The notes beneath the pieces are model-generated. The model was given only the letters and a program-made list of their open reading frames with translations. It made no database searches and was not told the DNA's origin. From the NCBI GenBank assembly GCA_046714315.1, contig JBKKBD010000212.1:30152-94151 (forward strand): a stretch of DNA of 64,000 bases, in the 5' to 3' direction. Positions 3,828 to 30,627 of this stretch are shown here, piece by piece. The position numbers and the translations under genes were made by a program. Origin of the DNA: Specibacter sp. Its GTDB lineage: Bacteria > Actinomycetota > Actinomycetes > Actinomycetales > Micrococcaceae. Within the stretch, counting starts at the first letter, position 1. Each line of letters begins with the position of its first letter.

Positions 3828-4625
3828 TTAGCGAGCTGTCGTGGGGACAGCCCTAGGCGCAGAGTTGGCCTGGTGCAGTGTCACAAGAGCCCCCGCTGCG
3901 ATCAATCCTTGACCAACGGTGTAGCTCAGCATGACCATTCCGTTTGTCCAGTCGGGCATGAGCTCGAGAGCAAAGATTCTAAATGACAGAATCGTGTCGG
4001 AAGCAAGGAAGAAGATTCCGCCGGATATCACTAGGGCATTGCAACGGGTTGACAGAGCGGCTGTTCCGCCGAGAACCAGCCCGTAGAGGGCCACAGCTAT
4101 GGCGAGTCCCTCGGCTCGTGGCCACATGATGATCAGTAAGACCACCCACCAGCCAGCAAAGGCCAGGGCCCACCAAGATACTGTGCGGACAGTCAGATGC
4201 CGCCAAAAGAGTCGCATATAGCAAAGGTGGGCTATGCCAAAGAAAAGCAGCATCAGTGGCAGCGTGGGTGCAAAGGGGAACAAGGCGCCCGCGCCGTCGC
4301 CCAACCATGAGAAGAGCAACCCGGCCAGCAGCAAGAGCCATGGGCGTTTGGTGGGCTGTGGGCCTTTTGTTAGCCCACTAAGGTCCAGTTCAGGGGCTAA
4401 GACTCGCCAACATGCGTGAAGGACTGCCACAATCAACACTGGCATGAGCAACAATTTGGTGGGGTCTGCAAGCATGTCGTTGTCGGCAAAACGTGCGCCC
4501 ACATGGACAACACTTACCGCTGCGTACGGAATAAATCCCAGGGCGATTTGCCGGGCGTCTTTGGCCGGGATGTTGATCTCAGGTATCAAGACACTCCTTC
4601 TCGCCGTGCGGCTGGTGGATAGCAA
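3828..4625 (-). CDS. YhhN/TMEM86 family lysoplasmalogenase-like membrane protein
   Basis: TKLLLMP, FSWLGDG, FFGIAHLCY, FFLASDTIL, LSYTVGQGLI motifs. Start uncertain. Confidence 0.82.
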   Translation of the reverse strand: MLSTSRTARRSVLIPEINIPAKDARQIALGFIPYAAVSVVHVGARFADNDMLADPTKLLLMPVLIVAVLHACWRVLAPELDLSGLTKGPQPTKRPWLLLLAGLLFSWLGDGAGALFPFAPTLPLMLLFFGIAHLCYMRLFWRHLTVRTVSWWALAFAGWWVVLLIIMWPRAEGLAIAVALYGLVLGGTAALSTRCNALVISGGIFFLASDTILSFRIFALELMPDWTNGMVMLSYTVGQGLIAAGALVTLHQANSAPRAVPTTAR

Positions 4626-8796: not shown

Positions 8797-9501
8797 CTAG
8801 GCTTGTGGCGTTTCGGTGGGTGAACCGGGCGTGGCCGGGGAATTGGCGCCGGGTGCTGCAGGGGGATTCTTGCGCTGCGCCTTTATGGCCGCCTTCGCTG
8901 CCCGCTCCTTGGCTGTTTCGTTGTCGCGGAGGAGTTTCTCGGCGGCCTTGATTTCGCGGATCTTGCGTCCGCGTCGCATCCACATCCGACCCAGAATGAT
9001 GACAGCCACGGCGCAAACGACGCCAACCACCATGAAGATCTGGCTCCAGGTGCCGAACCAGTTGGCGGTGTTGGCCCAGATCGAGCGGGCGTCGGCAGCG
9101 GTTTGGGTGGTTCCAAAGAGGACGCCGAGCGTGAGCAGGTTCGGTACCGTCAAAATGACGCCAAGAACCACCAGTGAAATGCGCACCCACTTATTGAGTT
9201 TGCGGTGGTGGGCCTGCCATGCGACCAGAACAGGGGCGAAGGAGAAGACGAAACCGTAGAACATGCCCAGCGGGATGCTGTTGCCCAATTGGTTCCCGAT
9301 CTGATTTCCGATCGACTTCGCCCAGATCAGTGGCACGGTCACGGACGCGATCAGGTATGCGACCACGAGCACAGCAGCAATGATCACGCCAAGAATCGTA
9401 CGAAAGAGCCATACTGGCAGTTTGGCCTTGCCTTGATTGCCAGTCCTGGTGTTCGAATCGGTCGAACCATCCGTCGGGGTGGGGGCTGTTGAATCAGTCA
9501 T
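8797..9501 (-). CDS. Hypothetical integral membrane protein
   Basis: About 4 hydrophobic segments, basic C-terminal tail; 9 nt upstream of the USP start. Confidence 0.78.
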   Translation of the reverse strand: MTDSTAPTPTDGSTDSNTRTGNQGKAKLPVWLFRTILGVIIAAVLVVAYLIASVTVPLIWAKSIGNQIGNQLGNSIPLGMFYGFVFSFAPVLVAWQAHHRKLNKWVRISLVVLGVILTVPNLLTLGVLFGTTQTAADARSIWANTANWFGTWSQIFMVVGVVCAVAVIILGRMWMRRGRKIREIKAAEKLLRDNETAKERAAKAAIKAQRKNPPAAPGANSPATPGSPTETPQA

Positions 9502-9709
9502 GCATGCATCATCTCAGAGTTGCTGCTGACAGAGTGGGTCATTTCGATTAAATATGCTAGAAAGTACCTTCGACTTGTCAAGAACGGCCGCACACTAAAG
9601 ACTGGTTAAGGATCGTTGAAGAATTCCGCGGCCAAATGTGTTTTAGTTTCCCAATAGACTTCACTTTTTCCTCGCACTGCACGCGATGAACCCCGAAAGG
9701 TGCGCATAA

Positions 9710-10096
9710 ATGAGCAACATTCCAGCAGAACTTTCCTACACCGGTGAACACGAATGGGTACTGGCACCCACGGCTGAGGGTGTGGTGCGCGTTGGCATCA
9801 CCGATTTTGCGCAGGATGCACTGGGCGACGTCGTTTATGTTCAGGTCCCGGAGCTCGGAACCGAAGTTACGGCTGACACGGTTGTAGGCGAGGTCGAGTC
9901 CACCAAGAGCGTCAGCGACATCTACGCACCTCTGACCGGCACGGTCACCGCCCGTAACGAAGCCTTGGATGCCGATCCGGCGCTGATCAATTCAGATCCT
10001 TACGGTGCCGGCTGGTTGCTCGAAATCACCCTCACCGATGCGGCCAGCTACGGCTCGCTCCTCAGCGCGGCTGAGTACCAGGAAAAGGTAGGCTAG
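9710..10096 (+). CDS. gcvH: Glycine cleavage system H protein
   Basis: YTGEHEW, VGITDFAQ, EVESTKSVSD lipoyl-Lys, NSDPYGAGW; RBS GAAAGG. Confidence 0.96.
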   Translation: MSNIPAELSYTGEHEWVLAPTAEGVVRVGITDFAQDALGDVVYVQVPELGTEVTADTVVGEVESTKSVSDIYAPLTGTVTARNEALDADPALINSDPYGAGWLLEITLTDAASYGSLLSAAEYQEKVG

Positions 10097-10218
10097 TAGC
10101 TAAGGAACATTTGGGTAGCTCTACCCAGATCATTCCCAGCGACGGCTCGTACGTTGTTAGTAACTGAGGGAGCATCCGCTTTCCTCTGCAAGATTTTTTT
10201 CAGCAAGGAGGAGTACCA

Positions 10219-10701
10219 ATGGTTGACACGGGTAACGGCGCCGGGGTGAATGATCAGGCGATCTCCCAAGATCAGCCCGGTGCTACAGACACGACCTCAA
10301 TTCAGCTTCCTCCCGTTCAGGCCGGGCCCTCCACGGTGCCCGTTCTGGCGCCCGATGAGCAAGCCGCCGTGAACTCGCTTCCTGCTGGTTCCGCGCTGCT
10401 CATTGCGCACGTAGGGCCAAATGCTGGAGCGCGGTTCTTGCTGGACAGCCAGGTCACCACGGCCGGCCGCCATCCAGACGCGGACATTTTCTTGGACGAT
10501 GTGACCGTTTCGCGACGCCACGTGAATTTCATGAAGTACGACGGCGGCTTCGAAGTCATCGACGCCGGCAGCCTCAACGGGACATACGTAAACGGCGACC
10601 GTGTGGATGCAGTGCGCCTGCGGACCGGAAATGAAGTGCAGATCGGCAAGTTCCGACTCACGTACTACTTCAGCTCCAGCAACGCCGCTGCGGATTCCTA
10701 G
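10219..10701 (+). CDS. garA: FHA domain protein, GarA/OdhI family
   Basis: GRHPDADIFLDDVTVSRRH, SLNGTYVN, IGKFRL; N-terminal DTTS motif; gcvH-garA-MerR synteny. Confidence 0.9.
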   Translation: MVDTGNGAGVNDQAISQDQPGATDTTSIQLPPVQAGPSTVPVLAPDEQAAVNSLPAGSALLIAHVGPNAGARFLLDSQVTTAGRHPDADIFLDDVTVSRRHVNFMKYDGGFEVIDAGSLNGTYVNGDRVDAVRLRTGNEVQIGKFRLTYYFSSSNAAADS

Positions 10702-10707
10702 GGCGCT

Positions 10708-11475
10708 GTGGGAAGTATGAATACCGGCACAGGGCGCCGGTTGGTGGACGTGCAGTCCACCAGCCGGCGTTCCGGTGCCGCAACCGTCCTGAACATTGGT
10801 GAAGTCCTGGCGCAGCTGACCTCGGACTTCCCTTCAGTGACGGCCTCCAAGATTCGTTTTTATGAAGAAAAGGGACTCATTACCCCGCAGCGAACCGCAG
10901 CAGGGTACCGGCAATTCCGAGAGTCCGACGTCGAAAGGCTCCGGTTTGTGCTCGCGCTCCAACGTGATCACTACCTGCCACTGAAGGTCATCAGGGAGTA
11001 TCTGGATGCCATCGATCAGGGGCTGACACCGGAGAACCTGCCGCCGGGTGTTTCCATTGCGCCGCGCATGGTTTCCGAGGATATGCTCCGTGAGCTCAAG
11101 GGCCGGACACGCCGCCTGACGCCGGAGCAGTTGCGAGCCGAGTCTGGTTCCGGCATTGATTTATTTGAGACCATGATCAGTTATGGTCTGATCGCCTCGC
11201 ATGAGGGTACTTTTGACGATCACGCCTTGAAGGTTGCGCAGGCGTGCACTGCGTTGGCAGTCCACGGACTTGAACCTCGTCACCTGCGGCCTTTCCAGGC
11301 TGCCGCCGACAGGGAATTTGGTTTGGTTGAACGTGCGGTAGGTCCGGTGTCAGCGCGCAAGGACAGCACGGCTGCCATGCGGGCTGCCGAGTCTGCCCGC
11401 GAAATTGCTGATCTGTGCCTGAGTCTGCACAGTGCCCTAGTTCAGACACGCATTGCTGAGATGGAAAGCTCATGA
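10708..11475 (+). CDS. ftsR: MerR-family regulator FtsR (Rv1828/Cg1631-like)
   Basis: IGEVL..SKIRFYEEKGLI.P.RT.GYR.F, LPLKVI, GLEPRHLR..RAAADRE; directly downstream of garA. Exact start uncertain. Confidence 0.82.
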   Translation: MGSMNTGTGRRLVDVQSTSRRSGAATVLNIGEVLAQLTSDFPSVTASKIRFYEEKGLITPQRTAAGYRQFRESDVERLRFVLALQRDHYLPLKVIREYLDAIDQGLTPENLPPGVSIAPRMVSEDMLRELKGRTRRLTPEQLRAESGSGIDLFETMISYGLIASHEGTFDDHALKVAQACTALAVHGLEPRHLRPFQAAADREFGLVERAVGPVSARKDSTAAMRAAESAREIADLCLSLHSALVQTRIAEMESS

Positions 11476-11981
11476 TCGAAGTGGAGATCGTGGGAGTCAG
11501 GATTGAACTGCCGTCCAACCAGCCGTTGGTTCTCCTGCGCGAGAAGGTGGGGGAGCGGCATATCCCGATCTGGATCGGTGCCGCCGAAGCCACGGCCATC
11601 GCATTGTCAGAACAAGGCGTGGTCCCTCCGCGACCGCTAACCCATGACCTTTTGTGTGGAGTCGTTTTGGCGCTTGGACACAGAATCCTGGACGTTAGCC
11701 TGACCAGGGTTGAGGACGGTGTGTTCTTTGCCGAATTGCGCTTCGACAACGGGACAACCATTGGCTCACGTGCCTCCGACGCCATCGCCATTGCCCAACG
11801 TGCAGAGTGCCCGATTTTGGCTGATGAGAACCTCATTGAGGAAGCCGGCGTGGTGATTGGGGACCACAATGAGGACGGAAACGCCGAAGTCGTCGCCGAT
11901 GACGACGAGGCCAAGGAGCGTGAGGTTCGTCAATTCAGAGAATTCCTCAATGACGTCGAGCCAGAGGATTTTGACAAGTAA
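11472..11981 (+). CDS. Bifunctional nuclease family protein (DUF151, Rv1829-like)
   Basis: IPIWIGAAEA, RPLTHDL, SRASDAIAIA. Confidence 0.9.
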   Translation: MIEVEIVGVRIELPSNQPLVLLREKVGERHIPIWIGAAEATAIALSEQGVVPPRPLTHDLLCGVVLALGHRILDVSLTRVEDGVFFAELRFDNGTTIGSRASDAIAIAQRAECPILADENLIEEAGVVIGDHNEDGNAEVVADDDEAKEREVRQFREFLNDVEPEDFDK

Positions 11982-12013
11982 TCCGCGTATTTTCGGGGAT
12001 TTCCTCTCATGTC

Positions 12014-12034
12014 TAACCTTAAAGCTGAGCCTGA
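12014..12034. promoter_or_regulatory. Putative FtsR-type site
   Basis: TAACCTTAAAGCTGAGCCTGA, 16/21 identical to the inverted repeat upstream of ftsZ (52247-52267). Confidence 0.45.
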
Positions 12035-12070
12035 AACTTTCGACACGCTGAAATTGTTGTGCGGACGTCT

Positions 12071-12099
12071 TTGACCTTGCTCCCGCAGGGATCTAACGT
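12071..12099 (+). promoter_or_regulatory. SigA-type promoter of the MerR gene
   Basis: TTGACC-17 nt-TAACGT. Confidence 0.6.
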
Positions 12100-12245
12100 C
12101 AAAGTATTGAGTTCCCCATTGCAAGCTTCGGCTGGCACGGGCACACTTGAGGTTAGAGCCCCTTCAGCTCTCCCTTAGGTGTTTCGTGCGTTGACGGTTT
12201 GCAAGCAAGCAAACCGTTCGGGGGACTGTGAACAGGAGGATCCAC

Positions 12246-12839
12246 GTGAATGCCAAGAGTGACGCCGGCGAGCCGACGGCAGCCGTTGTCCCCAGTGCGG
12301 CATTCCGCGCGGGATCCCAAGGCTTGTTGTTCACCGAAGACCTGCCTGTCCTCGATGTGGACGCGGGTTACCGTGGGCCCACAGCCTGTAAGGCTGCCGG
12401 CATTACTTACCGCCAGCTCGACTACTGGGCTCGTACGGGTCTGGTGGAACCGGCCGTCCGCGGGGCCGCAGGATCTGGCTCGCAGCGACTCTATGGCTTC
12501 CGGGACATTCTTGTACTCAAGGTGGTCAAGCGGCTTCTGGACACGGGTGTGTCCCTCCAACAAATTCGCACCGCTGTAGAACACCTGCGCGAGCGCGGCG
12601 TTGAAGACTTGGCACAAATCACGTTGATGAGCGACGGCGCCTCGGTGTATGAGTGCACCTCGGCAGATGAGGTTATCGACCTTGTGCAGGGCGGCCAGGG
12701 TGTCTTTGGCATTGCCGTTGGCCGTGTTTGGCGTGAGGTTGAAGGAAGCCTTGCTTCCCTCCCCAGTGAACATGCGGCCATTGCAGCTTTCCCGGACGAT
12801 GAACTCAGCAAGCGCCGCGAAGCCCGCAAGATCTCCTAA
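12246..12839 (+). CDS. MerR-family regulator (Rv1830-like)
   Basis: GITYRQLDYWARTGLVEP, SQRLYGFRD, LDTGVSLQQIR, GQGVFGIA; AGGAGG RBS before GTG 12246. Confidence 0.9.
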   Translation: MNAKSDAGEPTAAVVPSAAFRAGSQGLLFTEDLPVLDVDAGYRGPTACKAAGITYRQLDYWARTGLVEPAVRGAAGSGSQRLYGFRDILVLKVVKRLLDTGVSLQQIRTAVEHLRERGVEDLAQITLMSDGASVYECTSADEVIDLVQGGQGVFGIAVGRVWREVEGSLASLPSEHAAIAAFPDDELSKRREARKIS

Positions 12840-12849
12840 CCTCCGTTCC

Positions 12850-12919
12850 AACTGACCCGCAGTAGTGGTTGAAATATCGCGTTTTCGCGCCGTTTTCCAA
12901 CCACTACTGCGGGTCAGTT
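12850..12919 (-). repeat. REP-like ~70-bp palindrome, copy 1
   Basis: Perfect 22-bp arms AACTGACCCGCAGTAGTGGTTG (12850-12871) and CAACCACTACTGCGGGTCAGTT (12898-12919). Internal motif is inverted relative to copies 2 and 3. Confidence 0.92.
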
Positions 12920-12937
12920 CTTGGTGTTGCTGAGAAC

Positions 12938-12946
12938 TGTGGATAA
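12938..12946 (-). promoter_or_regulatory. DnaA-box consensus TTATCCACA
   Basis: TGTGGATAA on the + strand, between palindrome 1 and the -10 (CATGAT 12973-12978) of the nuclease gene. Confidence 0.5.
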
Positions 12947-12984
12947 CTTAAACGTCACCGACGGTAACTTGCCATGATGGAGGC

Positions 12985-13923
12985 ATGTTTCAACGTGAAT
13001 CATTTCCACCAGAACTGAGAAATGGCCCCTTCACGACCAGATCAGCACAGGATTTGGGCGTCGGCCGGGGCAAGCTCAGGCACGCAGCAATCAGGGCGCT
13101 AAGCCGTGGAATCGTCTCGATTGACGGTGAAGATCTGCCGCTGGCGCTCTTGACGCGGCCCTTCACCCAGGTAACTGGGTATTCTGCCGCATCGCACTAC
13201 ACCGCCTTTGCCATCTGGGAGTTTCCAGGATTCATGCCGGTTAACGATGAGACCTTGATTGACATTTCCCGCCAAGCTCCCCATGACGAACCGCGTCGTG
13301 CGGGCGTGCGGGGCCACACTACCAAGTTCCGTGACGATGAAGTGGTTTGCTTGGATGGATTGTGGCTCACCACCCGATGCCGCACGTGGTTGGATTGCTC
13401 CAGGCGTATGAGCGTCGATGAATTGGTGGTGGTTGCCGACCATTTGGTCCGCATCCCAAGGATGGAGTTTGAGGGTCGGGCCGAGCCCTACGCCACCGTG
13501 GAAGACCTTTCGCTGATGCTGGAACGCCACAAAGGCACACCCGGAATCCAAAAGGCCCGGCAGGCCCTTGCGCTCACGAGAGTCGGATCAGATTCCGCCC
13601 CGGAAACAAGGCTTCGCCTAGCTCTGGACAGAGCGGGCTTACCGGAGCCCCTGATCAACGTGGCGGTACAGCTGGTTCCCGGAAAGTCCCGTACACCCGA
13701 CGCCCACTTCCCTGAGTATCGTGTGGCAGTGGAGTACGACGGCGGCAGTCACTCCGATTCTGACCAGGTCACAAGTGACATTCGGCGGCAGGAAGACTTC
13801 CAGGAAGCAGGCTGGATTGAGGTGCGCATTGCCAAGGAGCACATGCGCGACGATGCCAAAGGGGCTGTGCGCAAGATCCGTGATGCACTGTACAGCCGAG
13901 GATGGCGTCCCAAACAGAACTGA
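12985..13923 (+). CDS. AbiEi-like N-terminal/DUF559 (Vsr-like PD-(D/E)XK) endonuclease domain protein
   Basis: ASHYTA, TTRCRTWLD, SAPETRLRLAL, PDAHFPEYRVAVEYDGGSH, DIRRQEDFQEAGWIEVR. Confidence 0.82.
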   Translation: MFQRESFPPELRNGPFTTRSAQDLGVGRGKLRHAAIRALSRGIVSIDGEDLPLALLTRPFTQVTGYSAASHYTAFAIWEFPGFMPVNDETLIDISRQAPHDEPRRAGVRGHTTKFRDDEVVCLDGLWLTTRCRTWLDCSRRMSVDELVVVADHLVRIPRMEFEGRAEPYATVEDLSLMLERHKGTPGIQKARQALALTRVGSDSAPETRLRLALDRAGLPEPLINVAVQLVPGKSRTPDAHFPEYRVAVEYDGGSHSDSDQVTSDIRRQEDFQEAGWIEVRIAKEHMRDDAKGAVRKIRDALYSRGWRPKQN

Positions 13924-13988
13924 CCCGCAGTAGTGGCTCAAAAAGTCACGAATATCGCGATTTTTCGAGCCACTACTGCGGGCCAGTT
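13918..13988 (+). repeat. REP-like ~70-bp palindrome, copy 2
   Basis: 22-bp arms AACTGACCCGCAGTAGTGGCTC / GAGCCACTACTGCGGGCCAGTT (1 mismatch); contains the TGA stop of the nuclease gene. Confidence 0.92.
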
Positions 13989-13995
13989 GTAAGGG

Positions 13996-14832
13996 CTAAC
14001 CGCGGTAGAGGCGGCTTCGGGTAGCGCTTTGATTCAGTACCGAATCGAGCAAGCGATCAAAGAGAGCCGAAGCGTTCTTGGCGGAATCTCCGGGCCACTG
14101 GTGCACAGGGTGTGCAGCGCCTTGGATCTGCTGCCAGTTGGCCTGTTCTGGAATGGTGGGGGAGAGCAGCAGCTCACCAAACATGGTTTTCATCTCGCCG
14201 AGCCGGTAGGCATGCTCGTTTGATCCTGTGCGGACGCGGTTGGCCACAATGCCGGCGGGCACAAGGGCCGGGGCAAATTCGGTGCGGAATAGTTCTATGG
14301 CGCGCAGGGTGCGTTGCGTGCCGGCCACGGAGAATAGGCCAGGCTCGGCGACGAGCAGCACGCGGCTGCTGGCGGTCCACGCCATGCGGGTCAGGCCGTT
14401 CAAGGACGGCGGGCAGTCGATCAGCACCAGCTGATAGGGTGCCGTGCCGTCACGATCAGCATTCGCCAACACGGTGGAAAGGCGGCGCAGATCGCGCTTG
14501 CCCAGGTCCGGTCGGTCGTAGATGCCACTGAAGGCCGAGCCCATGGCGACGTCGAGCGTTGGTGCGGCACCGCCGTCCTGCTGGTGGGCCGCCAGCCAGC
14601 CGCTGGGGACCACATTGGCGCCAAGGTTCGCCTTGCGTGCGTTCTTGATCATCTGGCCAATGTCCAGCTGGTCGCGCGCGGCGACACCGAGGCCGGTGGT
14701 GGCGTCGGCATGGGGATCGAGATCGATCACCAAAGTGGGGATGCCGGCCGCCAAGGCTGCCGAGGCCAGGCCAAGCGTGACTGAGGTCTTGCCGACGCCG
14801 CCCTTGAGGCTGCTGATACTCACTACTTGCAC
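13996..14832 (-). CDS. ParA/MinD-family ATPase (orphan, no ParB nearby)
   Basis: SLKGGVGKTS deviant Walker A, IDLDPHADAT, LIDCPPSL. Confidence 0.9.
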   Translation of the reverse strand: MQVVSISSLKGGVGKTSVTLGLASAALAAGIPTLVIDLDPHADATTGLGVAARDQLDIGQMIKNARKANLGANVVPSGWLAAHQQDGGAAPTLDVAMGSAFSGIYDRPDLGKRDLRRLSTVLANADRDGTAPYQLVLIDCPPSLNGLTRMAWTASSRVLLVAEPGLFSVAGTQRTLRAIELFRTEFAPALVPAGIVANRVRTGSNEHAYRLGEMKTMFGELLLSPTIPEQANWQQIQGAAHPVHQWPGDSAKNASALFDRLLDSVLNQSATRSRLYRG

Positions 14833-14933
14833 GGATGAACCATTACCCTTTGCGTTGCTTACTCAATCATGTGCTGTGCTGTTAGCCCTGACACATACAA
14901 TAGCTGTGGAACGTTCGCGACTTGGAGAACCCA

Positions 14934-17828
14934 TTGACAAATACCGCTGAAAATTTGCCGGAACGCCAGAGCACAAACAACCTTGTGTCGGCCGCCTTTA
15001 GTGATCGACACATTGGGGTTACTGCGCAGCCCCACATTCATCATATGTTGAGCACCCTAGGATTTGGTTCTTTGGAGGCGCTAACCACAGCCGCGCTGCC
15101 AAAATCGATCTATTCGGCTGAGCCGATGAACCTTCAGGCCGCCGTGTCGGAGGAAGTCATGCTGGCCGAATTGAAGGAGTTGGCTGGCAAAAACACCGTC
15201 AACAAGTCCTTCCTTGGGCAGGGTTACTACGGCACTCACACCCCCGGTGTGATTCAGCGCAACGTTTTGGAAAGCCCTGCCTGGTACACGGCATATACCC
15301 CTTACCAGCCTGAGATTTCCCAGGGCCGCCTCGAGGCGCTACTGAATTTCCAGACCGTCGTGTCGGATCTGACCGGCATGGTCACGGCCAATGCCTCCAT
15401 GCTCGACGAGGGCACCGCGGCCGCGGAGGCTGTCGCGCTCATGCGCCGCAATAACCGCACAGCCAAGGATGACGCCGTCCTGCTGGTTGACGCCGATACC
15501 TTCCCTCAGACCCTCGCTGTGGTGCATACCCGCGCCAAGGCCATGGGCATCCCTGTGCTCGCGCATAACTTTGACGAAGAACTCCCCGCGGTTGAGTTCT
15601 TCGGCGTGCTGCTGCAATACCCCGGGGACTCCGGGCTGATTCGCGACATTGAACCGATCATTGCCGCGGCCCACGCACGCAAGGCCGTTGTGGCCGTTGC
15701 CGCCGATCTGTTGGCGTTGACGCTTGTGGAATCCCCGGGTGCACTCGGTGCCGATCTAGCCGTTGGCACCTCCCAGCGTTTTGGTGTCCCCATGGGCTTT
15801 GGTGGCCCGCACGCCGGCTACATGGCCGTCCGCAAGGGGCTGGAGCGTTCGTTGCCTGGCCGCCTGGTGGGCGTGTCCAAGGATGCCGCTGGCAACCAGG
15901 CCTATCGTCTGGCCCTGCAGACCCGTGAGCAGCACATCCGCCGTGAGAAGGCCACCTCGAACATCTGCACGGCGCAGGTGCTGCTGGCTGTCATGGCCGG
16001 CATGTACGCGGTTTACCACGGCCCTGAAGGACTGCGAAAGATTGCCACCCGCGTCCACATGATGGCCCAGGGTGTTGCGACCGCGGCGACGGCAGCCGGA
16101 CACACTGTGGTGCACCCGAACTTCTTCGACACCGTCAAGATCAAGGTCACCTCGCACAGCGGCCACGCGGCGGCTGAACTTGTTGCCGCCGCGCACCGGG
16201 CCGGCTACCTGCTGCGCCAGGTGGATCACGATCACCTGCAGATCGCCGCCGATGAGACCACCACCGAGGCCGACGTCGCCGCTTTGGCAGCGTTGTTCGG
16301 CGACAAGGGCACACAAAAGGTAACGGACGGGTCCGCCGTCGAGCTCCCGGCGCCGGCCCGTGCCACTGGCTACCTTGCCAACCCCGTATTCCATGCGCAC
16401 AATTCCGAAACCCAGATGCTGCGGTACCTGCGCAAGCTCTCGGACGCCGATTACGCACTGGACCGCGGCATGATCCCCTTGGGCTCGTGCACCATGAAGC
16501 TGAACGCCACTGCGGAGATGGCCGCCGTGACGTGGCCCGAGTTCTCCAATCTGCACCCCTTCGCTCCGGCCTCGGACACCGTGGGCATCGTGGAAATGGC
16601 CACACAACTTGAAGCCTGGCTGGCCGAAATTACCGGCTACGACGCGGTTTCCGTGCAGCCCAATGCCGGTTCGCAGGGAGAATTTGCCGGGCTCATGGCC
16701 ATCCGCGCGTTCCACCTGGAAAACGGCAATCCGGACAGGGACATTGTGTTGATCCCGACCTCCGCACATGGCACCAACGCCGCATCTGCTGTCATGGCCG
16801 GCATGAAGGTTGTCGCCGTGGCAACGGACGGCTTCGGCAACATCGACATGGACGATCTCAAGCGCCAAATCACCGTCCACGAAGACAGCCTGGCCGCAAT
16901 CATGGTCACCTACCCGTCAACCCACGGCGTGTTCGAGACCTCCATCAGCGCCATCTGCGCCATGATTCACGACGCCGGAGGCCAGGTTTACGTTGACGGC
17001 GCGAACCTCAACGCTCTGGTTGGCTTGGCCCAGCCTGGCAAGTTTGGTGCCGACGTTTCCCACCTGAACCTCCACAAGACATTCTGCATCCCGCACGGCG
17101 GTGGCGGCCCCGGCGTTGGCCCCGTTGCCGTTGGAGCGCACCTGGCCAAGCACCTGCCGGCCCGCGAGCTTGATGCCGGCACCTCGGTGGGGCTGGTTTC
17201 CAGCGCACCGTACGGTTCGGCGTCGATCCTTCCCATCTCCTGGGCCTACATCCGCATGATGGGTCCGGAGGGACTGCGCCTGGCGACACAGACGGCCATC
17301 TTGTCGGCCAACTACATTGCCCGGCGCCTCAGCGAGCACTACCCGGTGCTGTACACGGGCGCCCACGATCTGGTGGCGCACGAATGCATCCTGGATCTGC
17401 GTGGTATCACGGCCGATTCCGGTGTGAGTGTTGATGATGTTGCCAAGCGACTCATCGATTACGGGTTCCATGCCCCGACCATGTCGTTCCCGGTGGCCGG
17501 AACGCTCATGGTGGAGCCCACCGAATCCGAGGACCTGGGCGAAATTGACCGCTTCATCAATGCCATGATCTGCATCCGCAAGGAGATTGCGGCCGTCCAG
17601 GATGGCCTCTGGCCCGCGGACGACAACCCTCTGGTGCATGCTCCCCACACGGCACAAAGCATCACCCAGGAGTGGGACCACCCCTACAGTCGTGAAGAGG
17701 CCGTCTTCCCAGCTGGTGTGGATCCGCGTGCCAAGTACTGGCCAATTGTGCGCCGCATCGACCAGGCCTACGGCGACCGCCACCTCGTATGCTCGTGCCC
17801 ATCCATCGAGGAACTGGCCGAGCAGTAA
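14934..17828 (+). CDS. gcvP: Glycine dehydrogenase (glycine cleavage P protein, single chain)
   Basis: [46 protein letters not shown]-Lys. TTG 14934 follows GGAGA; the ORF is open from 14922. Confidence 0.96.
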
Positions 17829-17864
17829 CGGCTCAGCCGGCCGCAAGAATATTACGTCCCCTGC

Positions 17865-17880
17865 AGTGATCTGTGCCACA
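17865..17880. promoter_or_regulatory. Possible CRP/GlxR-like site upstream of pyc
   Basis: AGTGA-tctgtg-CCACA, 2 mismatches to consensus. Confidence 0.25.
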
Positions 17881-18061
17881 CGATTTGGTGCAGAATGGCT
17901 GCAGGGGCGAAGCTTGCACCACTTTGTGTCACAGAACTACACCAAATATCTATAAGACGGCGCGATTTTGGCCTTAGTGTCAGCCTCGCTGCCCTCACGG
18001 GTGAGTCACTGCTTCAGGATTGAGGCACGTGCCTCGCCACCATTGTTCACACAGGAGTGAG

Positions 18062-21000
18062 ATGTTTTCGAAAATTCTGGTTGCCAACCGCGGCGAAATC
18101 GCGATCCGGGCATTCCGCGCCAGCTACGAGCTTGGTGCCAAGACAGTGGCCGTCTACCCTTACGAGGACCGCACCTCCATCCACCGCCAGAAGGCCGATG
18201 AAGCCTACCTGATTGGTGAAGAGGGCCACCCCGTACGGGCTTACCTTGACGTGGCAGAGGTGATCCGTGTCGCCAAGGAAGCCGGCGCAGACGCCATCTA
18301 CCCCGGTTACGGTTTCCTCTCTGAAAATCCTGACCTAGCCGCTGCCGCCAGGGATGCTGGAATTGCCTTTGTTGGCCCGCCCGCCGAAGTGCTGGAGCTG
18401 ACAGGTAACAAGGTTCGCGCCTTGGACGCCGCCCGCAAGGCCGGCATTCCCGTGCTGCAGTCAAGCAAGCCCAGTGCAGACCTTGACTACCTTTTGGGGG
18501 CCGCTGCCGAGATTGGCTACCCCATCTTCGCCAAGGCCGTTGCCGGTGGAGGCGGGCGCGGCATGCGCCGTGTTGAAAAGGCCGAGGACCTGGAGGAGGC
18601 CCTGAAGGCCGCCATGCGCGAAGCGGATGCAGCCTTTGGTGACCCCACCATGTTCCTGGAGCAGGCCGTATTGCGTCCCCGCCACATTGAGGTCCAGATC
18701 CTCGCCGATAATGAGGGCAACGTCATCCACCTGTTCGAACGCGATTGCTCACTGCAGCGTCGCCACCAGAAGGTCGTTGAAATCGCCCCGGCTCCAAACC
18801 TGGACGAGAACATCCGCAAGGCCCTGCACGCCGACGCCGTGAAGTTTGCCAAGGCCATGGGCTACGTCAACGCCGGAACCGTAGAGTTCCTCGTTGACAC
18901 AGTGGGGGAGCGGGCCGGTCAGCACGTGTTCATCGAAATGAACCCGCGCATCCAAGTCGAGCACACTGTTACGGAAGAAATCACCGACGTGGACCTGGTT
19001 CAGGCGCAGCTGCGCATTGCAGCCGGTGAGACCCTTGCCGATCTTGGCCTGAGCCAAGACACTGTACAGGTCAAGGGTGCTGCGCTGCAGTGCCGCATCA
19101 CCACGGAGGATCCCTCCAACGGCTTCCGCCCCGACGTTGGCGAGATTACCACCTACCGTTCGGCTGGTGGTGCCGGTGTAAGGCTCGACGGCGGAACCAT
19201 TTACGCAGGTGCCCAGATCAGCCCGCACTTCGATTCCATGCTGGTCAAGCTCACCTGCCGCGGCCGCGACTACCCGACAGCGGTTTCGCGCGCCCGCCGT
19301 GCCCTGGCCGAGTTCCGTATCCGCGGCGTCTCCACCAACATTTCCTTCCTGCAGGCCGTTCTTGCCGATCCGGCCTTCAACGCCGGTGACGTGGCCACGT
19401 CCTTCATTGACGAGCGTCCCGAACTGCTTAACTCGCATGTGTCCTCCGACCGTGGCACGAAGCTGCTGACGTGGCTGGCGGATGCAACAGTCAACAAGCC
19501 GCACGGCGAGTTGACGGTCTTGGAAGACCCGGCACGCAAGTTGCCCGACGTCGATCTCGCCACGGCTCCGGCCGGATCTCGCCAGCAGCTGGCAGAGCTT
19601 GGGCCCGAAGGCTTTGCCGCAGCCCTGCGAGCACAGATTCCCGTGGCCGTCACGGACACCACTTTCCGTGATGCACACCAGTCCTTGCTGGCCACCCGTG
19701 TGCGCACAAGGGACTTGTTGGCTGCGGGCCCCGCCGTCTCGGTGCTGACCCCGCAGCTGCTCTCGGTGGAAGCCTGGGGTGGGGCTACCTACGATGTTTC
19801 CCTGCGCTTCCTCGGTGAAGATCCGTGGCAGCGGCTGAGTAAGCTGCGCGAAGCCCTCCCCAACGTCTGCCTGCAGATGTTGCTGCGCGGGCGCAATACG
19901 GTTGGCTACACGCCGTACCCGGCAGAGGTTACCGACGCCTTTGTGCAGGAGGCGGCTGCCAGCGGCATTGACATTTTCCGCATCTTTGACGCGCTCAACG
20001 ATGTTGACCAGATGGAACCGGCCATCAAGGCCGTGCGTGCCACGGGAACCGCGGTGGCCGAGGTGGCCCTGTGCTACACGGGCGACCTTCTGGACCCGGC
20101 CGAGACCATCTACACCCTTGACTACTACCTTGAGTTGGCGCAGCGCATCGTCGACGCCGGCGCGCACATCCTGGCCATCAAGGACATGGCAGGGGTACTT
20201 CGCCCGGCCGCTGCCGCCAAGCTGGTCACGGCCCTGCGCGAACGCTTCGAGCTGCCCGTGCACCTGCACACTCACGACACCGCGGGTGGCCAGCTGGCCA
20301 CCCTGATGGCTGCTATCAATGCAGGGGTCGACGCCGTTGACGTCGCCTCCGCTGCCCTGGCAGGCACTACCAGCCAGCCCTCGGCGTCGGCCTTGGTTGC
20401 CGCCCTGGCACACACCGAGCGGGACACCGGAATCGATTTGGCGGCCATCAGCTCGCTGGAGCCGTACTGGGAAGCCGTTCGTCGCCTGTACTCACCCTTC
20501 GAGTCAGGTCTCGCCGCACCCACGGGCCGTGTTTACCTGCACGAGATCCCGGGCGGCCAGCTCTCCAACCTGCGCCAGCAGGCCATTGCATTGGGTCTGG
20601 GAGAGCGCTTCGAGGAAATCGAGGACATGTACACGGCCGCGGATAGGATCCTCGGGCACCTTGTCAAGGTCACGCCGTCGTCAAAGGTGGTGGGCGATTT
20701 GGCTCTGCACCTGGTGGGAATCAAGGCCGACCCGGCCGATTTCGAGGCCAACCCGCAGAACTATGACATTCCCGATTCCGTTGTTGGCTTCCTCGGCGGT
20801 GAGCTGGGAACTCCTCCGGGTGGCTGGCCCGAGCCGTTCCGTACCAAGGCCCTGCAGGGCCGGACCGTTACCGAACGCATGGGCACGCTCAGCGCACAGG
20901 ACAGCGCCGAACTTGCCGGGGACAGTGAAACACGCCGCGCGGCCCTGAACCGGCTGCTCTTTGCCGGACCCACCAAGGACTTTGAGGCTGTTCGCAAGAC

Positions 21001-21460
21001 GTACGGAGATGTTTCCGTGCTGGACACCCGCGACTACCTTTACGGCCTTCGCCGCGGCGTGGAGCACTCAGTGGACCTTGGCAAGGGTGTGCGCCTGATC
21101 GCCGTGCTTGAGACCATCTCCGAGGCAGATGAAAAGGGCATGCGGACCGTGGTCTGCAAGCTCAACGGCCAGAACCGTCCCATCACCGTGCGGGATCGCA
21201 GCATCGAAAGCACCGTCAAGGCGGCTGAGAAGGCCGACGAGACCGTGCCCGGCCAGGTTGCGGCGCCGTTTGCTGGTGCCGTGAGCGTCAAGGTTGCCGT
21301 GGGCGACGTCGTCGAGGCAGGCGCAACCATCGCCACCATCGAAGCCATGAAGATGGAAGCCTCAATTACGACGCCGATCGGCGGCACAGTGGCCCGCCTT
21401 GCCGTTCCTGGGGTGGCCCAGGTCCAGGGCGGAGACCTGTTGGTAGTTATCGAGGGCTAA
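18062..21460 (+). CDS. pyc: Pyruvate carboxylase
   Basis: ANRGEIAIR biotin carboxylase domain, RDAHQSLLATR carboxyltransferase domain, EAMKM biotin site; RBS AGGAG before ATG 18062. Confidence 0.97.
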   Translation: MFSKILVANRGEIAIRAFRASYELGAKTVAVYPYEDRTSIHRQKADEAYLIGEEGHPVRAYLDVAEVIRVAKEAGADAIYPGYGFLSENPDLAAAARDAGIAFVGPPAEVLELTGNKVRALDAARKAGIPVLQSSKPSADLDYLLGAAAEIGYPIFAKAVAGGGGRGMRRVEKAEDLEEALKAAMREADAAFGDPTMFLEQAVLRPRHIEVQILADNEGNVIHLFERDCSLQRRHQKVVEIAPAPNLDENIRKALHADAVKFAKAMGYVNAGTVEFLVDTVGERAGQHVFIEMNPRIQVEHTVTEEITDVDLVQAQLRIAAGETLADLGLSQDTVQVKGAALQCRITTEDPSNGFRPDVGEITTYRSAGGAGVRLDGGTIYAGAQISPHFDSMLVKLTCRGRDYPTAVSRARRALAEFRIRGVSTNISFLQAVLADPAFNAGDVATSFIDERPELLNSHVSSDRGTKLLTWLADATVNKPHGELTVLEDPARKLPDVDLATAPAGSRQQLAELGPEGFAAALRAQIPVAVTDTTFRDAHQSLLATRVRTRDLLAAGPAVSVLTPQLLSVEAWGGATYDVSLRFLGEDPWQRLSKLREALPNVCLQMLLRGRNTVGYTPYPAEVTDAFVQEAAASGIDIFRIFDALNDVDQMEPAIKAVRATGTAVAEVALCYTGDLLDPAETIYTLDYYLELAQRIVDAGAHILAIKDMAGVLRPAAAAKLVTALRERFELPVHLHTHDTAGGQLATLMAAINAGVDAVDVASAALAGTTSQPSASALVAALAHTERDTGIDLAAISSLEPYWEAVRRLYSPFESGLAAPTGRVYLHEIPGGQLSNLRQQAIALGLGERFEEIEDMYTAADRILGHLVKVTPSSKVVGDLALHLVGIKADPADFEANPQNYDIPDSVVGFLGGELGTPPGGWPEPFRTKALQGRTVTERMGTLSAQDSAELAGDSETRRAALNRLLFAGPTKDFEAVRKTYGDVSVLDTRDYLYGLRRGVEHSVDLGKGVRLIAVLETISEADEKGMRTVVCKLNGQNRPITVRDRSIESTVKAAEKADETVPGQVAAPFAGAVSVKVAVGDVVEAGATIATIEAMKMEASITTPIGGTVARLAVPGVAQVQGGDLLVVIEG

Positions 21461-21477: not shown

Positions 21478-21549
21478 AAAGTAACCCGCAGTAGTGGTCG
21501 TAAAATCAGCGAAAATCGCGATTTTACAACCACTACTGCGGGTTACTTT
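21478..21549 (+). repeat. REP-like palindrome, copy 3 (no associated gene), between convergent pyc and fadD
   Basis: 30-bp arms AAAGTAACCCGCAGTAGTGGTCGTAAAATC / GATTTTACAACCACTACTGCGGGTTACTTT (1 mismatch), same core as copies 1 and 2, followed by a T-run. Confidence 0.92.
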
Positions 21550-21582: not shown

Positions 21583-23397
21583 TTAGGAAGGCTTCTTGCT
21601 CAGGTAGATGTCTTCCACGACCGCGTTGTAATCCTTGAGGACCTGGCCACGCTTGACCTTCATGGACGGGGTGAGGTGGCCGGAAGTCTCGGTGAAGTCG
21701 GTGTCGACGATCCGGAACTGCTTAATGGCTTCGGCGGAAGAGACCGAGCTATTTGCCCTGTCTACGGCCTTCTGTACCGCGGCGAGGACAATCGGGTCCT
21801 TGCCTGCTTGTGCCACCGTGATGCCTTCGCTGAGGCCGTGAGCCTTGCCCCATTGCGGCAATGCTTCTTCATCCAGCGTGACGATCGCGGCGATGAACGG
21901 GCGCTGCTCGCCAATGACGACGCACTGGGAAACTATGGCGTCAGCCCGGATCTGATCTTCCAGTAGGGCCGGGACAACGTTCTTGCCACCTGAGGTGACA
22001 ATGATTTCCTTTTTACGCCCCGTGATTTTCAGGAATCCCTGATCGTCGAGCTCGCCAATGTCTCCGGTCCGGAACCAGCCGTCAACGAAGGTTTCGGCTG
22101 TTAGGTCATCGCGGCCGTAGTAGCCCTTCATGACGCACACACCCTTGGTGAGGATCTCGCCGTCGGCCGCGATCTTCACGGCATTGCCCGGCAGGGGCGC
22201 GCCCACGGTACCGATCTTGATCCGTTCCGGACGGTTGACGGTGATGGGCGCCGTAGTTTCGGTGAGGCCGTAACCTTCCAGGATTTGCAGGCCGATGCCC
22301 TGGAAGAAGTAGCCAAGACGCTCACCGAGGGGCCCGCCGCCGGAGACGGCGTGGCGAACATTGCCGCCCATTGCCGCACGAAGCTTGGAGTAGACAAGTT
22401 TGTCGAACAGGGCATGCTTGGCCTTGAGGACCAGGCCAACCTTGCCCGTCTGGGCTGCGCGAGCGTAGTCAATGGCGGTGTGGGCGGCCAAGGCGAAGAT
22501 CTTGCCCTTCCCGGCAGTTTCGGCCTTGAGTGACGCCGAGTTGTACACCTTTTCAAAGACGCGCGGCACAGCCAAAATGAACGTGGGTTTGAAGCTCTGC
22601 AGGTCATCGAGCAGGTGCTTGATGTCCGGGGTGTGGCCCACCTTTGCGCCACCAGCCACGGCCAAAACTGAGATGTACCGCGCAAACACATGGGCCAGCG
22701 GCAGGAACATGATGGTCTGGGAGCCCGGCGTCACCACGGTCTGGGCCAGGACGGCGAGTGCGTTCTCACTCAGCTCCACAAAGTTACTGTGTGTAAGCAT
22801 GCACCCCTTGGGGCGGCCCGTGGTGCCCGAGGTGTAAATAATGGTGGCGATGTCATCGAGGCCGTTGGCCGTGCGGGCGGCCTCCAAGGTCTCATCGCTG
22901 ACGTCGCGGCCGGCCTCACGCAGGACGTCCAGGCCATCGCCCTCAAGTTGCCACACGTGGGCCAACGTGGTGAGTCCTTCGTTGTGAGCAGCCTGGCGGA
23001 TGATGTTCTCGTGGGTGCCGGTTTCAGCGAAAACTGCCACCGCAGCCGAATCGCCCAGATTCCAGGCCACCTGAGACGGTGAGGACGTTTCGTAGATCGG
23101 CACGGAAATTGCACCGGCAAACCAGATTGAGAAGTCAACGAGTGACCATTCGTAACGTGTGCGGGCCATGATGCCTACACGATCACCAACGCCGATGCCA
23201 GAGGCGATCAGGCCCTTGGCGATGGCGCTAACGTCGGCCAGAAATTCCTTGGCGGATACATCAACCCAGACGTTGTCTGCATTGCGTTTGGAGAAAAGTG
23301 CAGGATTGGCGGCCAGCTTGGCCTGACGCAGAACGAAATCGGTGGTGTTCATGGTGGGCGGGCTGACCACCTTGGCCGGAACGGAAATCTCTTGCAC
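21583..23397 (-). CDS. fadD: Long-chain fatty acid-CoA ligase (FadD15-like)
   Basis: IYTSGTTGRPKG, EGYGLTET, WFRTGDIG, GHLTPSMKVKR. Confidence 0.93.
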   Translation of the reverse strand: MQEISVPAKVVSPPTMNTTDFVLRQAKLAANPALFSKRNADNVWVDVSAKEFLADVSAIAKGLIASGIGVGDRVGIMARTRYEWSLVDFSIWFAGAISVPIYETSSPSQVAWNLGDSAAVAVFAETGTHENIIRQAAHNEGLTTLAHVWQLEGDGLDVLREAGRDVSDETLEAARTANGLDDIATIIYTSGTTGRPKGCMLTHSNFVELSENALAVLAQTVVTPGSQTIMFLPLAHVFARYISVLAVAGGAKVGHTPDIKHLLDDLQSFKPTFILAVPRVFEKVYNSASLKAETAGKGKIFALAAHTAIDYARAAQTGKVGLVLKAKHALFDKLVYSKLRAAMGGNVRHAVSGGGPLGERLGYFFQGIGLQILEGYGLTETTAPITVNRPERIKIGTVGAPLPGNAVKIAADGEILTKGVCVMKGYYGRDDLTAETFVDGWFRTGDIGELDDQGFLKITGRKKEIIVTSGGKNVVPALLEDQIRADAIVSQCVVIGEQRPFIAAIVTLDEEALPQWGKAHGLSEGITVAQAGKDPIVLAAVQKAVDRANSSVSSAEAIKQFRIVDTDFTETSGHLTPSMKVKRGQVLKDYNAVVEDIYLSKKPS

Positions 23398-30579: not shown

Positions 30580-30627
30580 AACGAAAAGGGACCGCCAGCA
30601 ACACCGCGCTGGAGGTCCCTTTTCGTT
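30580..30627 (-). terminator. Terminator of the LysM-SLT gene
   Basis: 14-bp stem AACGAAAAGGGACC/GGTCCCTTTTCGTT with an inner CCAGC/GCTGG helix. Confidence 0.75.

Follow-up and report, generated by a model that had tools for sequence, protein, structure and literature searches.

A nuclease gene flanked by co-evolving palindromes forms a conserved cassette in Micrococcales: a putative PD-(D/E)xK counterpart of RAYT–REPIN systems

Introduction

Why does a single nuclease gene lie between two copies of a long palindrome, and does its product have anything to do with them? The question is raised by a 64,000-nucleotide stretch of Specibacter sp. DNA (contig JBKKBD010000212.1; hereafter the window), in which a gene for a 312-residue protein is enclosed by palindromes of 70 and 71 bp. 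In the RAYT–REPIN systems, which are named after the transposases associated with repetitive extragenic palindromic (REP) sequences, an enzyme gene that is resident and passed on vertically stands between palindromic repeats of its own, and every paralogue comes with a separate repeat family. AbiEi proteins of the AbiE system, for their part, autoregulate via inverted repeats in their own promoter. The window gene encodes an AbiEi-like domain fused to a nuclease of the DUF559/MTES_1575 type; such fusions form a large family for which, to our knowledge, no function is known.

The window locus belongs to a cassette that consists, in order, of a palindrome, a leader of ~65 bp with the motif CTGTGGATAAC, a gene for a winged-helix plus Vsr-type nuclease, and a second palindrome that contains the stop codon. 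With moderate confidence, we read it as a conserved cassette of the Micrococcales in which a nuclease and its palindromes are vertically inherited as partners, in the manner of RAYT–REPIN but with a PD-(D/E)xK nuclease, and in which the protein would have a role in binding, cleaving or copying the repeats.

Architecture of the cassette

The gene, its two palindromes and a third palindrome of the same family are located in the window as follows.

12850-12919: upstream palindrome (pal1), 70 bp, with 22-bp perfect arms and core CCCGCAGTAGTGG
12985-13923, plus strand: 312-aa nuclease gene, the open reading frame between pal1 and pal2
13918-13988: downstream palindrome (pal2), 71 bp, with core CCCGCAGTAGTGG as in pal1
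21478-21549: solo palindrome of the same family (pal3), with 30-nt arms at 97%

The arms of pal1 stretch to 32 nt and those of pal2 to 34 nt, in both cases at 88% complementarity, and the TGA stop codon (13921-13923) together with the gene's last codons makes up part of the left arm of pal2. The 13-mer core CCCGCAGTAGTGG has six exact occurrences in the 64 kb, namely both arms of pal1, pal2 and pal3, with core-to-core spacings of 32, 33 and 32 nt, respectively; when up to two mismatches are allowed there are nine matches, compared with 2.06 expected, a number reached in none of 100 shuffles. Folded as single-stranded DNA, pal1, pal2 and pal3 give predicted energies of -32.3, -28.7 and -35.2 kcal/mol (z = -11.2, -8.9 and -12.6).

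A preliminary description of this DNA had reported a gene bracketed by palindromes with a shared core at a spacing of 32–33 nt, arm variants that co-vary, and a position between convergent genes with neither a target duplication nor an AbiEii partner. All of this holds at the window locus, with the addition that pal2 carries one arm mismatch, and the co-variation is both real and strong when it is followed across loci, as described below.

Association of gene and palindromes across genomes

The closest homologues of the window protein are found in Arthrobacter, Pseudarthrobacter, Paenarthrobacter and Specibacter. We took 85 loci (L numbers) around homologues at 31–76% identity to the window protein and defined a close set of 57 loci at ≥50% identity (56 homologue loci plus the window); palindromes were located in the loci with a script of our own (ungapped, ≥14 matched pairs, loop ≤50 nt). 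A palindrome lies 40–110 bp 5' of the ATG in 40 of the 57 close loci, typically at a spacing of ~62–67 bp, and one starts ≤30 bp from the stop codon in 45; both are present in 30 loci, at least one in 55, and neither in two, whereas the density of 0.128 hairpins per kb would place 0.8 upstream and 0.7 at the stop by chance. More distant homologues in Microbacterium, Cellulomonas, Tersicoccus, Nesterenkonia and Brachybacterium have their own, unrelated palindrome sequences at the same positions. These counts bear on the simplest alternative, that a genome-wide REP-like repeat came to lie on both sides of the gene by chance. The window has only three copies, solo copies exist, and other genes are also bracketed, all of which would suit it, but the same fixed-junction architecture in 55/57 close loci and in other genera, compared with a chance expectation below one, contradicts it and leaves it hardly any probability. 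Chance adjacency is ruled out by the 55/57 association together with the concerted divergence described below.

Throughout the family, the palindromes are 66–72 bp long. In the commonest type, of 66 bp, the arm includes the last codons and the stop (CCC AAG TAG, or AAC TGA), and the last conserved residues of the protein, ...GWxPK*, are encoded within it. Because the stop codon and last codons form part of the palindrome arm, the gene–palindrome junction is ancient rather than the product of repeated independent repeat insertions. Genomes hold several paralogues, each with its own palindrome variant. Several Paenarthrobacter and Arthrobacter genomes (L033, L045, L055 and L061) have a second paralogue (~34% identity) at a conserved distance of ~4.4–4.5 kb on the 3' side of the focal gene; it shares the upstream motif CTGTGGATAAC but has a palindrome of a different type.

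The leader between pal1 and the ATG contains two conserved elements.

12937-12947, plus strand: invariant motif CTGTGGATAAC, between pal1 and the ATG, present once in the window
12969-12984, plus strand: second conserved 5' block, TTGCCAnnATGG(A/G)GG, from a by-eye alignment of 55 upstream regions

The second block includes a Shine–Dalgarno-like GGAGG (12979-12983). CTGTGGATAAC is found 5' of the gene in 51 of the 57 close homologues and is nearly invariant 37–47 bp 5' of the ATG even where the proteins share only 34–55% identity with that of the window (positions elsewhere include L033:14524, L045:14467, L055:14391 and L061:14386); in three Microbacterium loci (L066, L068 and L076) it is on the opposite strand. 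Of the 61 occurrences of TGTGGATAAC in the 1.63 Mb of loci, 57 lie directly 5' of a family gene. CTGTGGATAAC may be a promoter element or a protein-binding site, and since it is far more conserved than the palindromes, it is probably recognised by a factor common to all paralogues. Its reverse complement includes TTATCCACA, which we take to be a DnaA box of the E. coli type and treat as a lead. A sigma-70 promoter scan of 12700-14100 gave no site, and among RNA sequencing runs none was found to contain the gene.

In two loci the palindromes also enclose other genes. At L014:9186-9925, an open reading frame for a GNAT acetyltransferase-like protein (9243-9842, minus strand) is enclosed by a pair of family palindromes, and the nuclease cassette has the second of these as its upstream palindrome. 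At L025:1-1040, a family palindrome (1-50) is followed by TGTGGATAAC at position 74 with no nuclease gene next to it, then by a hydrolase-like open reading frame on the other strand (115-879), a palindrome (913-984) and an intact cassette gene; the first palindrome and TGTGGATAAC may be the 5' remnant of a lost cassette. When all family proteins were used as tblastn queries, the palindrome-bracketed intervals of L014, L025, L059 and L003 yielded no decayed nuclease gene, and that of L063 gave one marginal match (E 0.001).

Arm symmetry and concerted evolution

In an ungapped alignment of 68 gene-flanking palindromes, from which all pair counts were taken, Watson–Crick or G–U pairing is kept in 87% of cells, and both-side changes are seen in 28 of 30 pairs; the covariation score is 0.55, compared with 0.18 in shuffles (none of 500 reaches 0.55) and ~0.1 with slid partners. 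Because double-sided changes (441 cells) far exceed one-sided changes of the G–U type (51 cells), a constraint at the DNA level (i.e., a hairpin, a cruciform or a symmetric protein site) fits better than an RNA stem.

The two copies that flank a gene resemble each other more than they resemble copies elsewhere, with a mean identity of 81% within a locus and 49% between loci, and in 20 of 26 loci no other copy matches a palindrome better than its own partner. Since many of the loci are orthologous and yet the copies within each are alike, gene conversion or replacement must maintain the likeness of the flanking copies even as the pair drifts from species to species. Protein and palindrome divergence go together, with a Spearman coefficient of 0.80 over pairs that are non-independent.

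The alignment also bears on a likeness to integrons. The palindromes could be folded attC-like sites for a host tyrosine recombinase, with the nuclease as the commonest cargo, an explanation that we consider very improbable. Termini of the form CCCAAC...GTTGGG fall within the attC core consensus, which we take to be RYYYAAC/GTTRRRY and use as a lead; YYYAAC is found in 32 of the 68 palindromes (columns 4-9) and GTTRRR in 40 (columns 64-69), the window copies keeping only AAC and GTT. The stop codon within the site, as in many integron cassettes, the two copies at occupied sites compared with one at empty sites, and the other genes bracketed by family palindromes would also be as expected. Against this, the outermost R and Y positions are unconserved, extrahelical bases are not evident in the near-perfect palindromes, the cargo belongs to one family in 55/57 cases and brings a conserved leader of its own, the cassette stands in either orientation at one site, and no integrase, attI or array is present near the loci examined, where the neighbours are core genes (the window was not scanned whole for recombinases).

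The nuclease

What kind of enzyme is enclosed by the palindromes? The 312-aa protein joins an AbiEi-like N-terminal part of winged-helix type (residues ~11–151) to a PD-(D/E)xK nuclease of the Vsr/DUF559 type (~200–305). The PADLOC AbiEi model matches residues 11–151 (E 5.7e-12), and Pfam AbiEi gives no match. The Pfam matches to the C-terminal part, MTES_1575 (PF18741; E 6e-7, 29.9 bits) and DUF559 (PF04480; E 9e-4, 19.6 bits), lie below their curated cut-offs of 38.2 and 20.6 bits; at E ≤0.01, PF18741 is matched by 29/29 aligned homologues and PF04480 by 22/29. These two are the only Pfam matches, and no HUH/Y1 domain is among them. Across the 29 sequences, D239, E250, H256, Q261, D265, E270 and D271 are invariant and D252 is either D or E; the catalytic residues are intact.

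In an AlphaFold2 model based on 29 homologues (mean pLDDT 82, pTM 0.77), the predicted C-terminal domain is matched best by the catalytic domain of I-Bth0305I, a Vsr-fold homing endonuclease (3r3p; probability 1.00, target template-modelling (TM) score 0.78) and also matches the DUF559 protein NGO0050 (3hrl; target TM 0.74). In a PDB sequence search with the C-terminal domain as query, the D...E.D...H stretch aligned, in a weak match, with the nuclease domain of PvuRts1I; the full-length profile returned nothing meaningful. Given the Pfam and AbiEi matches, the fold of the model and the invariant residues, the predicted enzyme appears to be active and subject to purifying selection. Searched with a profile, a set of 1.84 billion representatives returned 14,598 clusters (at 50% identity) with E ≤1e-3, 4,882 at 1e-10 and 809 at 1e-30.

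A few copies of the gene are pseudogenes; those in L053, L062 and L073 are frameshifted or partial. In Specibacter cremeus (L056:10541-12098), an insertion of ~1.56 kb interrupts the nuclease gene between residues 179 and 178 and carries, as judged from open reading frame translations only, a frameshifted transposase-like gene on the other strand; the locus looks like a cassette disrupted by an insertion sequence (IS). No AbiEii toxin gene is adjacent to the gene in the window, where the neighbours are of the MerR family and ParA-like, or in related loci, and a type IV AbiE toxin–antitoxin system is ruled out by the missing toxin partner.

The MerR/ParA site and the mobility of the cassette

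Whether the cassette moves can be asked at the site that it occupies in the window, between two convergent genes.

12228-12839, plus strand: MerR-family gene, upstream neighbour of the cassette
13996-14832, minus strand: ParA-like gene, convergent downstream neighbour of the cassette

pal1 starts 11 bp past the MerR-family stop codon and ends 65 bp ahead of the ATG, and pal2 ends 7 bp short of the ParA-like stop codon; the intergenic space is thus almost wholly taken up by the cassette. No direct repeats that would indicate a target-site duplication are found at the borders. An IS or a miniature inverted-repeat transposable element (MITE) is ruled out, as there is no target duplication and there are no identical copies.

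Among relatives, a metagenome contig of 93% DNA identity (L096) has the cassette in the same orientation as the window, and in L001, L002 and L006 (the last from A. glacialis) it is inverted at the same site (flanks on the minus strand, cassette on the plus strand). L001 has the window's palindrome core, and both copies in L002 and L006 have a different one (CCCGCAGAAAACG...). The site is empty in A. stackebrandtii (L086) and in the L089-L092 group; A. cryoconiti (L094) and L097 have no cassette but a solo palindrome, CAAGGAGACCCGCAGTGACACCTAG..., with the GACCCGCAGT start in common. In the close relatives L089 and L091, the empty site (4338-4591) is a stretch of 254 bp in which inspection shows no long palindrome and which shares no DNA similarity with the window cassette. 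Protein identities between same-site cassettes are 94% (window and L096), 85% (L002 and L006) and ~75% (others). The simplest history that these comparisons suggest is one of vertical descent, losses and a single inversion.

Since the two palindrome copies are direct and inverted repeats at once, recombination between them can either delete the gene, leaving one palindrome, or invert it, and both outcomes are represented among the loci. At another site, L003 has a solo palindrome between formyltransferase and major facilitator superfamily (MFS) transporter genes, where L015, L033 and L041 have the cassette. Logan contigs from four runs showed no joints that would mark inversion or deletion variants, such contigs being prone to drop rare variants.

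The flanks of 55 close loci fall into ~10 syntenic groups (27, 16, 4 and 2 members plus six singletons), and same-site protein identities track host relatedness; movement therefore appears to be rare, and inheritance mostly vertical at a limited number of chromosomal sites. Paralogues, at most ~77% identical, are likewise syntenic. In tblastn searches the family was found on seven of 72,556 plasmid records, none predicted to be mobilisable and three of them Arthrobacter replicons of 0.75–1.35 Mb, and on one of 50,697 phage records. Relocation does seem to occur, rarely: the L003 cassette has a different context, yet its protein is 76% identical to that of L001, as close to it as the same-site cassettes are.

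Do these presence/absence patterns point to a homing-type selfish gene, which would use repeats owned by the host, cut unoccupied solo copies and be inserted by repair, as a parasite of the repeats? The closest solved fold to the modelled nuclease is that of a homing endonuclease catalytic domain, the gene is present or absent and in both orientations at one site, two empty sites hold solo palindromes, and the L003 cassette has reached another context at the same-site level of identity. Against this, only ~10 contexts are seen in 55 loci, 10–25 solo copies per genome remain unoccupied, the cassette phylogeny tracks the host at the shared site, plasmids and phages are nearly free of the family, and each of the several paralogues that persist in a genome has a palindrome type to itself. 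We regard homing as improbable.

The order of genes in the window at 9710-21460 (gcvH, FHA-domain gene, MerR, BFN-domain gene, MerR, [cassette], ParA-like, gcvP, pyruvate carboxylase) is common to Arthrobacter and Specibacter relatives and presumably resembles the mycobacterial Rv1826-Rv1832 region.

Dispersed solo palindromes

Is the palindrome confined to the cassette? In the window, pal3 lies between convergent genes for pyruvate carboxylase (ending at 21460) and an acyl-CoA ligase-like protein (ending at 21583) and is followed by a T-run, and a solo copy with pal3's core is found at the expected pyruvate carboxylase 3' end in A. glacialis (L006:2195-2268). In Logan contigs from three samples containing the species, the summed depth of pal1 is 11–23 times that of single-copy sequence, and pal1 is joined there to ~8 or more further flanking sequences, a number of them ending in stop codons. 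The palindrome type of the cassette in Arthrobacter sp. StoSoilB13 occurs at 20 places in each of two megareplicons, possibly ~10 sites per megareplicon given that both strands were perhaps counted; each has one homologue, and the palindrome type matches no other plasmid record. Family-type solo copies occur in the flanks of close loci at ~1 per 60–70 kb, and a genome would hold roughly 10–25. A solo copy tends to be like the cassette palindromes of the genome in which it lies (rank 1–6 of 52 in 9/11 cases), a likeness to which shared ancestry could contribute. A scan of metagenome DNA gave no matches to a gapped palindrome pattern and, among the matches listed, single chance matches only to a plain 14-mer.

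These copies bear on a more conservative explanation, in which the palindromes serve regulation only: the upstream copy would be the operator for autorepression of the AbiEi type, the downstream copy a terminator or insulator, and the solo copies ordinary terminators or extra binding sites, with the nuclease acting on something else, such as foreign or damaged DNA, and having no part in the fate of the repeats. AbiEi autoregulation through promoter inverted repeats is known, and the N-terminal part matches AbiEi at E 6e-12; the upstream palindrome stands at a fixed position relative to the conserved leader; pal3, with its T-run, and other solos follow the 3' ends of genes; and synteny kept over long times points to a host gene. 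For the upstream copy the proposal is plausible. Left unexplained would be why the same co-changing sequence should serve as operator and terminator (81% compared with 49% identity), why the stop codon lies inside the palindrome even in distant paralogues, why Watson–Crick symmetry is kept without G–U intermediates, and why lineage-specific solos match the cassette type. Moreover, terminator-like calls occur at the rate seen in shuffles, and neither pal1 nor pal2 is called as a whole, the one call there being a short stem inside pal2, on the minus strand. On balance, we judge an exclusively regulatory role unlikely, although less so than homing.

An Rfam scan of the window found nothing besides one tRNA. 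The tRNA gene (1712-1785) is followed by a hairpin with a 20-bp stem and an A-run and T-run (1792-1838), and another terminator-like hairpin, similar to it, is present at 30580-30627; neither is related to the palindrome family.

Discussion

The partnership of nuclease and palindromes that we favour can be summarised as a set of parts that are co-inherited and co-evolving, with repeats that also form a dispersed, lineage-specific family. How would such a set be maintained? We suggest that the AbiEi-like domain binds the palindrome, as duplex or as extruded hairpin, with the upstream palindrome doubling as operator, and that the Vsr-type nuclease domain nicks or cuts the palindrome DNA. Subsequent repair from another arm or copy would keep the arms complementary, and repair from another copy would keep the two flanking palindromes alike; recombination between the flanking copies would occasionally invert or delete the gene, deletion leaving a solo palindrome. 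On rare occasions, repair would copy palindromes, or the whole cassette, to new intergenic sites: a break at the centre of a solo palindrome, repaired with a cassette as template, would give palindrome–gene–palindrome in either orientation and with no target duplication. A cycle of this kind would account for arm symmetry without G–U intermediates, for the homogenised pair, for inversion and deletion, and for rare seeding of new sites. The specific version, in which a winged-helix-tethered nickase of the Vsr type (i.e., specific for mismatches or structure) acts on extruded or mismatched palindromes, with repair then sustaining and spreading the repeats with no transposase involved, is a tentative proposal that we hold possible rather than probable.

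Several observations weigh against the partnership. No direct evidence of contact between protein and palindrome is at hand. Some empty MerR/ParA sites hold no palindrome (L086 has only an ordinary short hairpin, L089 and L091 none). The small number of syntenic groups and the same-site identities that track the hosts speak for rare movement, and within-genome copies are ~10–15% divergent, unlike recently amplified REPIN populations, and hence indicate no recent burst. Unrelated genes, GNAT-like in L014 and hydrolase-like in L025, are bracketed by family palindromes as well. Finally, it should be noted that the loci were collected via the gene, so that the share of palindromes adjoining a nuclease gene is known only roughly. 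The preliminary description had called the locus a candidate REP-mobilising system with an enzyme other than a RAYT. Much of what it foresaw is borne out: the enzyme has a predicted Vsr-type fold and no HUH/Y1 match, the palindromes are tied to the gene family across genera, empty alleles exist in relatives, two of them (L094 and L097) with a solo palindrome, protein and repeat diverge together, and further palindromes are dispersed in the same genomes. The partnership is in this sense well founded. That the nuclease recognises, cuts or spreads the palindromes is an inference, and there is no evidence that it mobilises them: the cassette has few contexts, it is nearly absent from plasmids and phages, and the solo copies of a genome have diverged rather than arisen in recent bursts of identical repeats.

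How does the cassette compare with known systems? It is not a RAYT system, because the defining HUH/Y1 enzyme is absent, but by analogy it appears to work like one on the available evidence. Shared features are a low-copy, largely vertical enzyme gene flanked by cognate palindromic repeats, solo repeats dispersed intergenically, paralogues that coexist with their own variants, and lineage-specific repeat families. The differences are the winged-helix plus Vsr/DUF559 PD-(D/E)xK nuclease in place of the HUH/Y1 transposase, near-perfect palindromes of 66–72 bp in place of 20–40-bp REPs or REP doublets, the stop codon in the downstream repeat, tens of diverged copies rather than hundreds, and the GTAG/CGTC end tag, which is not consistently seen here.

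The enzyme itself invites comparison with other nucleases and DNA-binding proteins. With the Vsr-fold homing endonucleases (I-Bth0305I, EDxHD family), the cassette shares the predicted C-terminal fold (3r3p, TM 0.78) and presence or absence at a fixed site, but it has no intron, intein or adjoining target gene, lies intergenically between convergent core genes with complete palindromes, and has an AbiEi-like DNA-binding domain. The AbiEi antitoxin of type IV AbiE resembles it in the N-terminal domain and in binding inverted repeats in its own promoter; here, in contrast, there is no AbiEii nucleotidyltransferase, a nuclease takes the place of the C-terminal antitoxin domain, and palindromes flank the gene on either side and recur at other places in the genome. 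Vsr/DUF559 proteins (E. coli YcjD, N. gonorrhoeae NGO0050) have the same nuclease fold and D...E.D...H motif but lack the ~200 extra N-terminal residues and the flanking palindromes, and the cassette has no neighbouring cytosine methyltransferase.

Among mobile elements, integron cassettes with attC sites are similar in having an imperfect palindrome of comparable length at or over the stop codon, AAC/GTT-like termini, and two copies when occupied and one when empty; they differ from the present loci, which have no integrase, attI or array near those examined, a constant cargo, a promoter-like leader and both orientations. IS200/IS605 elements, which have subterminal hairpins and lack inverted terminal repeats, likewise have hairpin-forming ends and make no target-site duplication, whereas here TnpA and TnpB are missing, the cassette is not present in multiple identical copies, and the loci are syntenic across genera. 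A full-text literature search, with most subscription journals outside its reach, turned up no publication that connects this protein family with flanking palindromes.

A palindrome partner that co-evolves with the gene provides a concrete candidate substrate for a large nuclease family of no known function. In practical terms, the palindromes break short-read assemblies and could be mis-annotated as terminators, and the cassette offers a natural system for the study of palindrome stability, of concerted evolution of inverted repeats and of palindrome-mediated inversion. If the protein does act on its palindromes, REP-like families would be sustained by an enzyme class unrelated to the HUH transposases, and the idea of a repeat plus a resident enzyme would extend to Gram-positive actinomycetes. 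Should the nickase proposal prove correct, the cassette would be a non-HUH counterpart of RAYT–REPIN, vertically persistent across the Micrococcales, and would provide the first function for a large part of the DUF559/MTES_1575 family.

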